Counted from the first letter of the stretch, positions 1 to 3,750 are shown. The stretch: DNA of 34,629 nucleotides from Schwartzia sp. (in: firmicutes) (GCA_017619685.1 JAFZRW010000024.1:1-34629), one strand, 5' to 3'. Notes: generated by a model from the sequence alone, not told the origin. Numbers and translations are program-made.

Positions 1-490
1 GTGGATTGAAATATCCTCCGAATAGCCCGTATAATCGCTAATTTCACGGAACGTCGCCCTCCATGCGGAGGGCGTGGATTGAAATTTTTGTTCCTTGTCC
101 ATCATCAGCGCCCCCTCAGTCGCCCTCCATGCGGAGGGCGGGGTTTGAAATTAGGTTTTCTCGTCCGCATTATCATGCTATAGTATGTCGCCCTCCATGC
201 GGAGGGCGGGGATTGAAATAAAATGGCGAATTCTGCTTATGTGGCCCGTATATTGTCGCCCTCCATGCGGAGGGCGTGGATTGAAATCAGTTCGTGTTCG
301 AGGGAGCATTGTTCGCATTGAATGTCGTCCTCCACTTGGAGGGCGTGGGTTGAAATCGCATTAAACAGATGTGCGCGACACAGGCCGCACGGTCGCCCTC
401 CTCGCGAGGGCGTGGATGAAATACGAACAAGGTGGCAGTCATCGACGAGGAAATGCTGTCGCCCTCCGCAGGTCGGGCGTGGATTTTGGC
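1..490 (+). CRISPR. Type I-C-like CRISPR array, trailer-proximal end (continues left of the window)
   Basis: 33-nt repeat GTCGCCCTCCATGCGGAGGGCGTGGATTGAAAT at 53-85, 119-151, 187-219 and 255-287; 1-12 is the 3' end of another copy. Increasingly degenerate copies at 324-356, 392-422 and 458-490. Spacers are unique, 33-40 nt. The GC hairpin plus GTGGATTGAAAT tail matches the Cas5d-processed I-C repeat class (cf. B. halodurans GTCGCACTCTACATGAGTGCGTGGATTGAAAT). Confidence 0.95.
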
Positions 491-523
491 ATAAGAAAAG
501 CGCCTTGCAATCGCAAAGCGCTT
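491..523 (-). terminator. Intrinsic terminator of cassette 1, fused to terminal degenerate repeat R*
   Basis: 11-bp stem 498-508/513-523 (one mismatch, loop AATC). On the minus strand it is followed by TTTTCTTAT, which runs directly into the complement of repeat 458-490. Confidence 0.7.
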
Positions 524-542
524 CATATTGATTAGTTAATGA

Positions 543-749
543 TTAGGCTGTTGCAAATTGTCCCGTTACCGAAACGCCCTTTACATCTGACTTATCAACA
601 GATTCGGGTAAAAACTCTTTGTCCATCCACTCAAACAATTCTTTTTCTTCGCCTTTTGACAAGGCTGGCATTTCTTTTCCTGACGGAGGCATATTAGAAT
701 CATTAAACCAAACTTCAATTTCATTTTCATCGTGCATTGTGTTAATCAT
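543..749 (-). CDS. Small acidic protein (68 aa), putative immunity/antitoxin partner of the JAB-like protein
   Basis: AGGAGG SD (complement of 759-764) lies 9 nt before the ATG and beside the upstream stop codon (756-758), so the pair is translationally coupled. 15 D/E versus 6 K. AT-rich. No recognisable family. Confidence 0.7.
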   Translation of the reverse strand: MINTMHDENEIEVWFNDSNMPPSGKEMPALSKGEEKELFEWMDKEFLPESVDKSDVKGVSVTGQFATA

Positions 750-755
750 TCCTTG

Positions 756-1436
756 TCACCTCCTAATAAGTTTAATATACTTTTTCCGTTGCATAAAGTC
801 AACTATTTCCTTTGCAAGCAAATATTCGACTTGGTCTTTGTCAAAATTTGGATGGTCAGAAATAATTTTCCTTTTCGTCTTTTCAACCATAACATCAATA
901 TTATTAAATGGCTTTAATTTCTCCATCCGATATACAACGCCATTATGACAAAATATCGTCGAACCATCGGCTTTTGGACGGTTAAATAATCCGCACACAT
1001 CATCTGCTGACGGGATCGAGCTATTAGGATGATTGTGTACAATTTCAAAATATTTTCCGGTATCATTAAGGTGTTTCGTTTGTTTTGCAGTCAGCCCGCA
1101 TCTAAAAGTTTGTAAACCTTTTGCGGATTTATTTTCGACAATCAATTCTCCTGTACGGCTATCAAACATTGCAATATCTTCATATGGCGTTCCGTTTCTA
1201 TGAGCCAGAAAGTCAGCGGCCTTTTTATATAGTGATTCGTTGACGGCCTTGTGTCTAGTAATTTCTTCAAACTTATCATGATATGCTTTGCTATTTATTA
1301 CGGCGTAATCTACCGTAAAAGCATTATCAATACCGTTTTCTTTGACTAAGACGGCCTCGCTATGAACCATCGAAAGCGCATCCTCCTTTGATGCCATTAT
1401 ATCATTTCCCTCGAGTTCTTTCAATAACTCCTCCAT
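756..1436 (-). CDS. RadC-like JAB/MPN metalloprotease-domain protein (candidate Tox-JAB type toxin)
   Basis: YEDIAMFDSRTGELI ... FEIVHNHPNSSIPSADD matches the RadC/JAB signature (E ... HNHP..PSxxD). ATG 1436 has a GAGG SD; TTG 1463 (ORF track start) is the alternative start. The N-terminal EELLKELEGNDI segment is shared with the 1879-2322 ORF. Confidence 0.75.
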   Translation of the reverse strand: MEELLKELEGNDIMASKEDALSMVHSEAVLVKENGIDNAFTVDYAVINSKAYHDKFEEITRHKAVNESLYKKAADFLAHRNGTPYEDIAMFDSRTGELIVENKSAKGLQTFRCGLTAKQTKHLNDTGKYFEIVHNHPNSSIPSADDVCGLFNRPKADGSTIFCHNGVVYRMEKLKPFNNIDVMVEKTKRKIISDHPNFDKDQVEYLLAKEIVDFMQRKKYIKLIRR

Positions 1437-1481
1437 GTTCGCCTCGGACTCTTCCTCGCTCAACGACGGGGCGGCAAACGC
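1396..1481 (-). repeat. Conserved 5' module of cassette 1 (homologous to 2234-2326)
   Basis: Aligns by eye with 2234-2326 at roughly 75-80% identity (e.g. ATTATATCATTTCCCTCGA, TCTTCCTCGCTCAA). Covers about the first 14-23 codons of the JAB ORF (depending on the start used) plus upstream untranslated sequence. Confidence 0.8.
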
Positions 1482-1528
1482 AATAGCAATTCACAAGCTC
1501 GGTAGACCGAATGTAGTCATTGGTTTTC

Positions 1529-1561
1529 GTCGCCCTCCGCAGGTCGGGCGTGGATTTTTGC
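1529..1561 (+). CRISPR. Degenerate CRISPR repeat R*, second copy, between the two cassettes
   Basis: GTCGCCCTCCGCAGGTCGGGCGTGGATTTTTGC is 32/33 identical to 458-490 and 22/33 to the array consensus. Confidence 0.85.
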
Positions 1562-1596
1562 ATAAGAAAAGCACCTTGCATTTCGCAAAGTGCTTT
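1562..1596 (-). terminator. Intrinsic terminator of cassette 2, fused to R*
   Basis: 12-bp stem 1568-1579/1585-1596, then TTTTCTTATG on the minus strand. Homologous to 491-523, with a compensatory G:C to A:T change in the stem. Confidence 0.7.
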
Positions 1597-1618
1597 CGCG
1601 TGTCGATATGTGATTAGG

Positions 1619-1873
1619 TTATGCGTATGTCACTTGCGGTGCAATCTTCGGCGTTGCATATTTCGGCATAGATGGAGCTGCGTCCTTTACCAATTCCAAA
1701 TCTTCATCTGTACAATCGAATTCCGCCCAGTTCCCTCCATACGCGCCTTTTACCGTGCCGCTTTTGTTGTTTTCAACGATATACATGGTTTTACCGTTAA
1801 TAACGGTCTTATCAACTATTGTCCCAACTATCCCATTATGCTTGATTTTTACCACGTTGAACAAATCGAACAT
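1619..1873 (-). CDS. Small SH3-like protein (84 aa), DUF4926-like putative antitoxin/immunity
   Basis: ATG 1873 lies 5 nt after the upstream stop (1879-1881), with a GGGAG SD inside the end of the upstream ORF. FNVVKIKHNGIVGTIVDK...MYIVE resembles DUF4926 proteins (from memory, needs an HMM check). Confidence 0.65.
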   Translation of the reverse strand: MFDLFNVVKIKHNGIVGTIVDKTVINGKTMYIVENNKSGTVKGAYGGNWAEFDCTDEDLELVKDAAPSMPKYATPKIAPQVTYA

Positions 1874-1878
1874 TTGAA

Positions 1879-2322
1879 TCACTCCCTGTGCGCGGTAATA
1901 AAACGCGGCTTTTCTTCCGGCGTGTCCTTTTGCCATACGGTTCGGAAACGCCTCTGCTTGGTAACGCCTAAATTCATAAAGATACTGAATTTTTCTCTCC
2001 CATCGGGGAAAGACACCTTATCAAACGCAAAGCCAATGTCGAAATGTCTGTCAATATCACGATTCAACTTTTCAACATCGTCGACGGTATAGCCAACATC
2101 AAAAAACTCCTGTGCGTGCAATGCGCCCGGCTTCAAAAAAAAATCTTTTATCTTGGCTTCGGGCATGTTGTAATTATCCGATTCGAGCATCCTGATACCG
2201 CCGATCTGATTCTTTGAGGCTTTTCCTGTCTGTATTATATCATTTCCCTCGACTTCTTTCAAGATTTCCTCAATGCCTGCTCCGTTTCTTCCTCGCTCAA
2301 TGTCGGGACAAACGGGCGGCAT
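1879..2322 (-). CDS. DUF6883-like putative toxin (147 aa) with the shared N-terminal EEILKEVEGNDI segment
   Basis: KIKDFFLKPGALHAQEFFDVGYT...RFRTVWQKDTPEEKPRFITAH fits the DUF6883 pattern (K.xDYxL.P.H..G..KA.FF..G ... W ... PRLxTxY) that pairs with DUF4926. ATG 2322 is 4 nt from CRISPR repeat 2327-2358. Confidence 0.65.
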   Translation of the reverse strand: MPPVCPDIERGRNGAGIEEILKEVEGNDIIQTGKASKNQIGGIRMLESDNYNMPEAKIKDFFLKPGALHAQEFFDVGYTVDDVEKLNRDIDRHFDIGFAFDKVSFPDGREKFSIFMNLGVTKQRRFRTVWQKDTPEEKPRFITAHRE

Positions 2323-2326
2323 ACGC
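2234..2326 (-). repeat. Conserved 5' module of cassette 2 (homologous to 1396-1481)
   Basis: See 1396-1481. A 1-nt indel puts the shared TTGAGCGAGGAAGA in a different reading frame here. Confidence 0.8.
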
Positions 2327-2491
2327 GTCGCCCTCTTTACGGGGGCGTGGATCGAAATTGTGCTTGTGCGAGTGGAGTAATATATTCAATGTTGTCGCCC
2401 TCTTTGTGAGGGCGTGGATTGAAATGGGTTCAGATGTGTTGCGCGGAATTTCGTTTTAGGTCATTCTACGCAAACGGGCGTGGATTCTGGG
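2327..2491 (+). CRISPR. Three-repeat mini-array (variant repeats), no recognisable leader
   Basis: GTCGCCCTCTTTACGGGGGCGTGGATCGAAAT (2327-2358) and GTCGCCCTCTTTGTGAGGGCGTGGATTGAAAT (2394-2425), plus degenerate 2460-2491, which keeps GTC and GGGCGTGGATT. Spacers are 35 and 34 nt. Confidence 0.85.
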
Positions 2492-2725: not shown

Positions 2726-2766
2726 GTTTTTGTCTATCGACAAAAACTGAACAATAGCGTTATAAT
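2726..2766 (+). promoter_or_regulatory. Promoter of the EndoU gene with an overlapping palindromic operator
   Basis: TCGACA (2737-2742), 18 nt, TATAAT (2761-2766). The perfect inverted repeat GTTTTTGTC-TATC-GACAAAAAC (2726-2747) covers the -35. Confidence 0.5.
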
Positions 2767-2802
2767 AAACGCGGAAAATATGGAAGGAAAGGAACATCGC
2801 GT

Positions 2803-3417
2803 ATGAAAAATGTTTTTACGAAATTGATCGCCGTGTTTGCGGCGATGGTTTTTGTCGTCGCGGCGGCAGGCTGCGGAAGCAAGGGCGCGTCTTCCGGCGG
2901 CTCGGCGCAGACGGCGCAGACCGGTCAGCAAAAGCCGTCGCAGCAGGATAAGAAAAACGACGCCGCGAAGCCCGAGAAGAAGTCGAGCTATACGATGAGC
3001 GACGTCAAGAAGCTCAGGGACACGGACAATTTCTCGCGGCACGGACTCGAGCATATCTTCGACGGCACGGTCAACAAGAAGGGAAAAGCCACCGGCTATC
3101 ATTACTGCAAGGTTACGGACAGCAAAGGCCGCATCATTGACGGCAGCCGAAGCAAGAAGGACGGCAACGGCGTCTTTACCGCGAAGGTCGAAGTGGACGG
3201 CGTGAAGAAGGAAGGCTTCAGTTCCTTCTATCCCGAGGACTGGTCGCCGCAGGAAGTGGTGGACGCCATCAATACCGCTTACAAGGACGCGATGAACGAC
3301 CCGAAGAATCCGCACGGTTCGATCTGGATCGGGCATGCGGGCAAGCTGGAGATCAATATGTATCTGGACGACCACAAGAAGATCTTGACGGCCTATCCAA
3401 TCCATCGGGGGAAATGA
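2803..3417 (+). CDS. Lipoprotein with bacterial EndoU-like RNase toxin domain
   Basis: Signal peptide plus lipobox (VVAAAGC), a low-complexity linker, then HGLEHIFDG...KATGYHY ... ILTAYPI, which fits the EndoU_bacteria pattern (HIxxG...GGH...TAYP). Confidence 0.7.
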   Translation: MKNVFTKLIAVFAAMVFVVAAAGCGSKGASSGGSAQTAQTGQQKPSQQDKKNDAAKPEKKSSYTMSDVKKLRDTDNFSRHGLEHIFDGTVNKKGKATGYHYCKVTDSKGRIIDGSRSKKDGNGVFTAKVEVDGVKKEGFSSFYPEDWSPQEVVDAINTAYKDAMNDPKNPHGSIWIGHAGKLEINMYLDDHKKILTAYPIHRGK

Positions 3418-3420
3418 GTT

Positions 3421-3750
3421 ATGCTGAATTATAGAATCGACATCGAGGGAAAAGGGAATCCGCTGCCCATCGTGTATTTTGCAGATGAGGGATACGAGCT
3501 CGCGGCGACGTTCCTGCTGGCGGAGGCGAGGAATTTCGGCTCTGCGATCGTCGACGCGCTGGAGGCGGTGACGGGCGGTCAGAAGGATCACGGCTCCTTC
3601 GCCGGAAACGTGTTCAGCCTTGAGATCACGCCGGAAACGACTACGATCTGCGACGACATCTCGGGGAAGGAATGCGAGATAGGCACGCAGGATTTGCAGG
3701 AGGTTGCCGAGGAATACTGCGCGGCGTATGAGCGCCTGACGGGAAAATAA
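3421..3750 (+). CDS. Hypothetical protein (109 aa), putative cognate immunity protein of the EndoU toxin
   Basis: Starts 3 nt after the EndoU stop. Acidic, no signal peptide. The role is inferred from position only. Confidence 0.55.
   Translation: MLNYRIDIEGKGNPLPIVYFADEGYELAATFLLAEARNFGSAIVDALEAVTGGQKDHGSFAGNVFSLEITPETTTICDDISGKECEIGTQDLQEVAEEYCAAYERLTGK

Follow-up and report, generated by a model that had tools for sequence, protein, structure and literature searches.

How do complete protein-coding genes come to stand where spacers are expected in a CRISPR array? Such arrays are thought to contain short spacers only. The question is raised by a DNA stretch of 34,629 nucleotides (nt) from Schwartzia sp. 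(GCA_017619685.1, JAFZRW010000024.1:1-34629; hereafter, at its full length, the window), which opens inside a CRISPR array and in which the spacer lengths are regular but for two "spacers" that measure 1038 and 765 nt. An initial annotation had described the repeats, a variant repeat termed R*, the two AT-rich inserts and the gene pairs on the minus strand, all of which are found where it had placed them, and its view of the inserts as self-contained toxin/immunity-like modules in spacer positions agrees with their predicted anatomy. The two inserts, denoted cassette 1 (c1) and cassette 2 (c2), are probably captured phage-derived orphan toxin/immunity units which are shuffled by general recombination in the decaying trailer of the array, a reading to which we assign a probability of about 0.6.

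All related contigs, denoted by L numbers, likewise begin within the array. Its trailer-proximal segment in the window (1-457, + strand) comprises a partial repeat at 1-12, five copies of the canonical repeat GTCGCCCTCCATGCGGAGGGCGTGGATTGAAAT starting at positions 53, 119, 187, 255 and 324, and a degenerate 31-nt repeat at 392-422 that is followed by a 35-nt spacer. Beyond the cassettes, three degenerate trailer repeats (2327-2358, 2394-2425 and 2460-2491, + strand) are separated by spacers of 35 and 34 nt. All spacers are unique and measure 33-40 nt at 13-457 and 34-35 nt at 2359-2459, while the loop sequence is highly variable among the trailer repeats. The repeat matches type I-C in its length of 32-33 nt, its 5′ GTCGC, its G+C-rich hairpin (8 bp in the canonical repeat, -16.8 kcal/mol) and its 3′ end, GGATTGAAA(T/C) or GGATTGAAAT; the subtype call is made against what we take to be typical I-C repeats, such as that of Bacillus halodurans. 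The Rfam model CRISPR-DR9 gives weak matches on the + strand. The polarity of the repeats places the leader and the cas genes, which in type I-C form a cas3-cas5-cas8c-cas7-cas4-cas1-cas2 operon, outside the window to the left, and thus the inserts in the old, trailer end of the array. Right after the last degenerate repeat lies a perfect 45-nt palindrome (2504-2548, -25.7 kcal/mol, z -6.4) flanked by A and T runs, probably a bidirectional terminator with which the array transcript ends.

Each cassette is joined to a copy of R*. R*1, GTCGCCCTCCGCAGGTCGGGCGTGGATT (458-490, + strand), has its 3′ GAAAT swapped for cassette sequence and is directly joined to the terminator of c1, and R*2 (1529-1561, + strand) is directly joined to that of c2. 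The two copies are identical at 32 of 33 positions, and each agrees with the array consensus at 22 of 33, namely in two blocks (10 and 11 nt) and at one further, isolated position. That R* derives from the array repeat, as had been proposed, is confirmed by a degenerate repeat pattern allowing up to three mismatches, which matches only the five canonical repeats and three R* copies (expectation from shuffled sequences, 0.00). The third copy, R*3, GTCGCCCTCCGCAGGTCGGGCGAGGCTTGAAGCC (2645-2678, + strand; 2 mismatches in 28), had escaped the initial annotation; it lies beyond the last degenerate repeat and the palindrome, and forms a slot that is empty in the window and filled by a third cassette in contig L012. 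R* differs at three positions from the repeat type found in contigs L007 and L011, as against six from the repeat of its own array. The exact R* core has no match in GTDB genomes, IMG/VR or JGI metagenomes, nor has the repeat family one among the viral contigs of IMG/VR. With -9.3 kcal/mol the R* hairpin is no stronger than those of shuffled sequences; since this hairpin is crippled and R*1 and R*2 lack the 3′ handle, a normal CRISPR RNA (crRNA) is unlikely to be formed from R*. Upstream of R*3 a promoter-like TTGACA-16-CAGAAT is present at 2598-2625, and downstream a + strand hairpin with a T-run at about 2700-2731, so that this region could be the source of a crRNA-like RNA of about 100 nt; no target was found for the R*3 pseudo-spacer.

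Read on the minus strand, both cassettes show the same order of elements: a 5′ module, a leader, a large open reading frame (ORF), a small ORF 5-6 nt downstream of it, a terminator and the reverse complement of R*. Their G+C contents of 38.7% and 44.2% compare with 56.9% in the remaining window. All four ORFs are under purifying selection, the ratios of non-synonymous to synonymous substitution rates (dN/dS) being 0.06-0.13 for the large and 0.19-0.34 for the small ones. In c1, the large ORF (756-1370, 204 aa, dN/dS 0.07-0.13) encodes a JAB/RadC-like domain with an HxHP..PSxxD motif, and the small ORF (543-749, 68 aa, dN/dS 0.24-0.34) a putative immunity protein with the motif VWF(N/D)DSNMP. 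The intrinsic terminator at 489-524 is of a conserved type, AAGCRCTTTGC..GCAAGGYGCTTTTCTTATGC, which phage muf toxin modules have downstream as well. In c2, the large ORF (1879-2190, 103 aa, or 95 aa if translation starts at 2166; dN/dS 0.06) belongs to the Pfam family DUF6883, and the small ORF (1619-1873, 84 aa, dN/dS 0.19) encodes a putative immunity protein which is 88% identical in amino acid sequence to its counterpart in L018; its intrinsic terminator occupies 1559-1597. The terminator hairpins of c1 and c2 amount to -18.5 and -18.2 kcal/mol with z scores of -3.3 and -4.2. Products of 235, 147 and 105 aa had been proposed for the two large ORFs and the small ORF of c2. Gene callers in other assemblies and homologues indicate that the first two extend too far and that the likely products have 204 and 103 (or 95) aa; the actual third product has 84 aa.

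These extensions are accounted for by the 5′ module, which had been taken for a shared protein N-terminus and is instead a promoter plus leader from the linker of a phage gene. Both modules carry TTGAAA-17-TGnTATAAT, an 11/12 match to a promoter with an extended -10 element. In c1, leader and module occupy 1371-1480, with the Shine-Dalgarno sequence AAAGGAGG at 1382-1389, the -10 element TGATATAAT at 1396-1404 and the -35 element TTGAAA at 1419-1424; the ATG is located at 1370 and the conserved upstream sequence reaches to about 1480. In c2 they occupy 2191-2326, with the -10 element at 2234-2242, the -35 element at 2257-2262 and a module that extends to about 2314. Cassettes c1 and c2 and contig L007 have an identical promoter core, TCGAGGGAAATGATATAAT, and an opposite-strand TTC abuts the TG of the extended -10. 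The alignment between the c1 and c2 modules stops exactly at TATAAT, so that the codon 4 nt from the repeat at 2327, formerly regarded as the start of the 147-aa ORF, is probably no real start. A reading of the module as an N-terminus was rejected, as the frame upstream of the -10 is shifted in c2 relative to c1, a stop codon directly precedes the -10 in L023 (AATGATATAAT), and homologues and gene callers start downstream. The end of the c2 module is separated from the repeat at 2327 by 12 nt, the corresponding distance being 0 nt in L011 as compared with 48 nt in c1, where a unique segment (1481-1528) between module and R*2 may be the relic of a spacer. The proximal 44 nt of the c2 module are 93% identical to L007. 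A further copy of the module is absent from the window, as is a full-length toxin gene of the same family upstream. IMG/VR contains no match to the module, and a search of JGI metagenomes with a degenerate version returned the L007 contig only.

Which proteins do the cassettes encode? Close relatives of the 204-aa protein of c1 are few, but a profile search retrieves about 1,000 representative clusters, in most of which the domain ends a protein of 430-900 aa. In 48 viral and several genomic loci it forms the C-terminus of Phage_Mu_F or Phage_min_cap2 proteins of 500-610 aa. The domain keeps its HxHP..PSxxD motif invariant, the catalytic-type motifs of the cassette toxins being invariant likewise, and a small ORF follows every homologue of the toxin. 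A fold search yields weak matches only (JAB/MPN, RadC and deaminase folds, E ≥ 0.05), and the JAB assignment is therefore tentative, relying mainly on the motif and a sub-threshold RadC match in Pfam. By its appearance c1 resembles a JAB/RadC-type metallopeptidase, unlike a classical nuclease toxin. As MuF cargo delivered with the capsid it could act as an anti-defence effector, a deconjugating peptidase for instance, which the product of the small ORF would inhibit. Homologues of the DUF6883 protein of c2 are likewise fused to Phage_Mu_F or Phage_min_cap2. Its AlphaFold2 model (predicted local distance difference test score 94) finds its best match in the PDB in the C-terminal toxin domain (CT) CdiA-CT of Klebsiella pneumoniae 342 (probability 0.97-0.99, template modelling score 0.52-0.59), and on this model c2 encodes a putative BECR-type RNase toxin. 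PDB sequence searches with the cassette proteins came back empty, the four ORFs have no match in PHROGs, NCBIfam or PADLOC, and no ORF of the window matches the Pfam models of the Phage_Mu_F or min-cap2 carrier.

The fusions place the cassette genes among the polymorphic toxins of the MuF family known from temperate phages (Jamet et al. 2017, PMC5576092), where a small ORF directly follows 89% of the muf toxin genes (PMC5576092). The non-coding parts of the cassettes have the same origin. The translated leader (..NDIMASKEDALSMVH..) aligns with the linker of the full-length MuF toxins in L024 and L025, and the closest full-length phage genes (L024/L039 and L025) carry TGGTATAAT in this linker, at the same position as the -10 of the orphans, together with the matching terminator AAGCACTTTGC..GCAGGGTGCTTTTCTTATGCC downstream. 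The element TGGTATAAT is located at about 9997 in L024, 5997 in L039 and 352 in L025, 118 nt upstream of an NSKxYHDK motif. Judged by its sequence, it suggests an internal promoter, by which toxin domain and immunity gene would be transcribed apart from the late operon. Since both the in-linker -10 and the terminator are shared, the cassette corresponds to the part of a phage muf toxin gene that extends from its internal promoter to the terminator. The window offers no prophage context, with CRISPR repeats to the left of its cassettes and housekeeping genes to the right of them; neither cassette DNA nor spacers match GenBank phages, and no I-C-like repeat is present in the 48 viral loci with the c1 domain.

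Comparison with other strains shows that the slots vary. In L002, L003 and L087, which stem from three other metagenome samples, the sequence is colinear with the window over every junction at 99.6-99.9% identity. L012, from the same sample as L002, is 97-98% identical to the window in the flanks of R*3 but contains an extra unit there: R* plus terminator, a 56-aa ORF, a 204-aa toxin which is 50% identical to that of c1 and has a JAB/RadC-like domain as well, a promoter, and then R*3. Its 70-nt R*/terminator segment is 100% identical to window positions 1527-1596 and thus of the c2 type. The presence/absence polymorphism at R*3 is bounded by direct copies of the 22-nt R* core, and both alleles occur in one sample. 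The copies flanking cassette 3 share their first 22 nt only, the left one having a cassette-type 3′ sequence. The prediction that cargo would vary between strains at a repeat-bounded slot is thereby borne out, as L012 has its third cassette exactly at R*3. The difference between L012 and the window is what recombination between two direct R* copies yields, and the same process deletes spacers. Between cassettes, identity is 86-100% in R* and terminator and 79-93% in the module, while the cargo is unrelated or about 50% identical, c1 and c2 being alike only in module and R*/terminator; such sharp switches of identity are the signature of recombination in conserved flanks.

The data are metagenomic and contigs tend to break at repeats (L001 begins exactly at R*3, L004 4 nt inside it), so that repeats might in principle have misjoined unrelated contigs. 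The contigs from three samples that span every junction, with unique flanks longer than the repeats, make such an assembly artefact, the chimera considered at the outset, very unlikely.

Cassettes at I-C arrays recur in other lineages, and in each case their orientation is antisense to the array. An array of 42 repeats GTCGCCCTCCGCACGGAGGGCGTGGATTGAAAT in L007/L008, which stem from a different organism, is accompanied by a cassette about 290 nt from the last repeat, whose toxin is 66% identical to that of c1 and whose promoter core and terminator are as in the window. In L011, a third lineage with a toxin 73% identical to c1, a cassette terminator is followed after about 140 nt by a repeat, a 34-nt spacer, an R*-like repeat with intact 3′ end, and then module, toxin and partner. 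The intervals between terminator and repeat thus show that the junctions of phage DNA and repeat differ between lineages. In L007 an 85-aa ORF (1014-1271) is situated between the terminator and the first repeat, and in L011 (25-158) an open reading frame continues straight into the repeat.

Cassettes of this kind also occur apart from CRISPR. Copies with 89% identity to the c2 cargo (1555-2184) immediately follow a type III restriction gene and have no repeat in their surroundings, and further orphan cassettes adjoin a tRNA gene or ung. Homologous cassettes thus adjoin the I-C repeats of L007/L008 and L011 but are not specific to CRISPR. Among the non-CRISPR copies of the DUF6883 cassette, several strains (L013:524-917, L014:5873-6266, also L015-L017) have a 1-nt deletion that shifts the frame of the toxin (117-aa product P0019), while the 84-aa partner is kept intact, which is typical of decaying orphan toxins with retained immunity.

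From this material we infer the following course of events. A promoter-to-terminator unit inside the MuF-family polymorphic toxin gene of a temperate phage would have been taken up, in antisense orientation, at the promoter-distal end of a type I-C array, in its degenerate trailer, thereby creating the joint between a truncated variant repeat, R*, and the terminator. Later duplication, exchange and deletion would proceed by ordinary homologous or slipped recombination, either between copies of R* and the repeat, as in spacer loss, or between the conserved promoter and terminator ends, whereby cargo would be swapped; no dedicated enzyme would be required. The genes would be expressed from their own promoters. 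The cassettes are proposed to persist because the partner protein neutralises its cognate effector, the benefit being immunity to toxins from related phages or lysogens, or else a selfish stabilisation of the locus of the toxin-antitoxin kind. Within 10 kb to the right of the array no gene for an integrase, transposase or recombinase is present. The spacers of the window, L007 and L011 do not match the phage loci compared or the cassettes, and hence there is no evidence for recombination between spacer and protospacer as the route of capture.

Several points weigh against this reading. The three different cassette/repeat junctions share one polarity, which points to common descent or a directional process. 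For RecA-type recombination, the mere 22 nt of identical core in the recombining R* copies are short. The window and L011 agree at 27 of 28 positions of the R* core even though synonymous sites in the neighbouring toxin genes have reached saturation; plain decay does not predict this, and it hints at selection on R* or at a recent exchange of flanks. The cas operon and the leader-proximal spacers lie outside the window, which leaves room for a functional link to Cas. Finally, toxicity, immunity and expression of the cassette genes are putative, being deduced from their sequences.

Could CRISPR-Cas itself control the cassettes? As in the CrePA and CreTA systems, degenerate repeats and spacers might give crRNA-like RNAs with which the I-C Cascade represses the promoter conserved among the cassettes; if Cas were lost or inhibited, as by anti-CRISPRs, the toxin would be set free to kill or arrest the cell, which would thus be addicted to CRISPR-Cas. 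There is precedent in the I-F CrePA, where a degenerate mini-CRISPR represses a protein toxin that consists of a single phage-derived domain (bioRxiv 10.1101/2024.01.05.574328), and mini-arrays that regulate toxin-antitoxin cargo are known in CRISPR-cas loci (PMC10120712). The identity of the promoter core in c1, c2 and L007 with its TTC abutting the extended -10, the conservation of R* beyond neutral expectation, and the promoter-like site and hairpin with T-run around R*3 would all fit. However, when the 13 visible spacers and pseudo-spacers are compared with 400-2810, the best seeds reach 7-8 of 10 matches next to an NTC protospacer adjacent motif (PAM), which is chance level. R* has a disrupted hairpin and in two copies, R*1 and R*2, a substituted 3′ handle, the toxins are already paired with a protein partner, unlike Cre toxins, and the same cassettes persist without CRISPR nearby. 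Both the repression and the resulting addiction are accordingly judged unlikely. A search for a CreA-like guide gave no significant combination of PAM and seed; spacer 423-457 matches the promoter of the neighbouring EndoU gene in 7 of 10 seed positions, within chance.

The conserved R* might also be a site of capture in its own right, either attC- or att-like and recognised by a recombinase, or a target at which Cas1-Cas2 integrates kilobase "super-spacers", so that the array would resemble an integron platform. Each cassette does occupy a spacer position with repeat copies on both sides, the R* core is directly duplicated on the two sides of the L012 insertion, three cassettes have the R*/terminator junction in common, and all share a single polarity. 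But the duplication covers the first 22 nt only and the left copy lacks a full second repeat, contrary to the chemistry of Cas1-Cas2; simple integration by Cas1-Cas2 at R*3 was rejected, as the two flanking copies are not full duplicates. Moreover, the repeat junctions differ (about 290 nt after the terminator in L007, about 140 nt in L011), no integrase or transposase is found within 10 kb to the right, and the cassettes have their own promoters, unlike integron cassettes. A dedicated capture system is thus quite unlikely. We regard as quite improbable, too, that the cassettes are the scar of a mobile element in which a solitary repeat unit, an anti-CRISPR RNA or a viral mini-array lay beside the toxins and recombined by repeat homology. 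The AT-rich composition does mark the cassettes as foreign DNA, R* is nearer to the repeat type of L007 and L011 (3 mismatches) than to that of its own array (6), and in L011 a repeat-spacer-R* unit stands between two cassettes. Neither the R* core nor the repeat family occurs in the viral contigs searched, though, GenBank phages give no match, I-C-like repeats are absent from all 48 viral loci with the toxin domain, and the loops of the trailer repeats vary so much that relatedness in the loop is weak evidence. Among the three explanations first offered for the locus, recombination between repeats acting on cassettes fits best; addiction modules that stabilise array and cas genes found no PAM-flanked guide match, and an element using the repeat as its att site has neither a recombinase in the sequence covered nor an extrachromosomal or phage copy of R* in its favor.

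A broader proposal would see in the R*-bounded slots a working, repeat-based gene-cassette platform coupled to CRISPR-Cas, which stores whole phage-derived toxin/immunity genes in addition to spacers and in which Cas1-Cas2 or another repeat-recognising enzyme aids capture or excision, or a Cascade-bound crRNA-like RNA silences the cassette promoter. This is rather unlikely, yet it is kept open because R* and the promoter core are unexpectedly strongly conserved. If the promoter were silenced in this way, the cassettes would guard against anti-CRISPRs and represent a protein-toxin, multi-cassette analogue of CrePA in type I-C.

With phage-derived orphan units moved by general recombination as the preferred reading, the locus can be compared with known systems. 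It shares with the MuF polymorphic toxins (PMC5576092) homologous C-terminal domains, the adjacent small ORF, the terminator and the in-linker -10. It differs from them in that the cassettes have no MuF carrier or prophage, possess their own promoter and Shine-Dalgarno sequence, and lie between CRISPR repeats. Orphan CT/immunity arrays, as in contact-dependent inhibition (CDI), Rhs and MafB systems, consist of tandem pairs that keep a conserved upstream linker and whose strain-variable cargo is exchanged by recombination in the flanks. The cassettes of the window are likewise iterated, retain pre-toxin linker sequence and vary between strains, whereas a full-length toxin upstream is missing from the window, a CRISPR-repeat derivative stands between the cassettes, and the cassettes are apparently self-expressed. 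In integrons, cassettes are arranged in tandem and in a single orientation with an imperfect palindrome at the end, and in chromosomal integrons they often encode toxin-antitoxin pairs; tandem arrangement, orientation and imperfectly palindromic end element recur here, but no integrase is seen within 10 kb to the right, the promoters are individual and sigma-70-like, and the junction positions vary across lineages. Prophage phiAP1.1 integrates into a CRISPR repeat in Streptococcus pyogenes. There, too, an array is broken at a repeat by foreign, phage-derived DNA, whereas the present locus contains several modules of 0.8-1.0 kb and neither a phage genome nor an integrase. CrePA, CreTA and mini-array cargo resemble the cassettes as domains cut from a larger phage protein that reside in a type I locus beside degenerate repeats; here, however, no complementarity of guide and promoter was found, a protein partner is present, and the cassettes are iterated, strain-variable and placed in the array trailer instead of the cas operon. 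The loss and rearrangement of spacers by recombination between CRISPR repeats (reviewed in PMC8047081) provides the closest parallel to the polymorphism at R*3, as a unit between two direct repeat copies is present or absent with the crossover in the shared core, except that the unit is a gene cassette of about 1 kb and not a 35-nt spacer.

All components, that is the I-C array, the MuF toxin domains, the orphan cassettes, repeat recombination and phage-derived toxins at CRISPR loci, are known, but their combination appears to be new: no description of protein toxin/immunity cassettes iterated in the spacer positions of an array was found in the literature searched. In at least three lineages, spacer positions are taken by gene cassettes of kilobase size, and co-occurring strains differ by the gain or loss of such cassettes at repeat copies. 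The repeat recombination by which spacers are pruned can then also carry and shuffle functional genes, so that array trailers can be landing pads for phage-derived toxin/immunity modules. Two conflict systems, the phage MuF polymorphic toxins and CRISPR, are linked at these loci, which would be missed by CRISPR finders that split arrays at long "spacers" and which lend themselves as a natural test for a guard role of protein toxins in type I-C like that of CrePA in I-F. At the same time a compact, apparently mobile unit of promoter, toxin, partner and terminator is defined, which equals an internal transcription unit of phage muf genes.

To the right of R*3 the window harbors one more gene pair (2761-3750, + strand), consisting of an EndoU_bacteria lipoprotein (2803-3417, Pfam 2.9e-25) and a 109-aa partner (3421-3750), with its own promoter. 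Unlike the inserts, this pair has native G+C content. Together with its promoter it is about 80% identical to a pair in L013-L020, which stands in a different neighbourhood (Asp23, NusB, xseAB) and also adjoins a DUF6883 cassette, there in the opposite relative orientation. Given this degree of identity in a different neighbourhood, the EndoU pair looks like a mobile toxin/immunity module itself.

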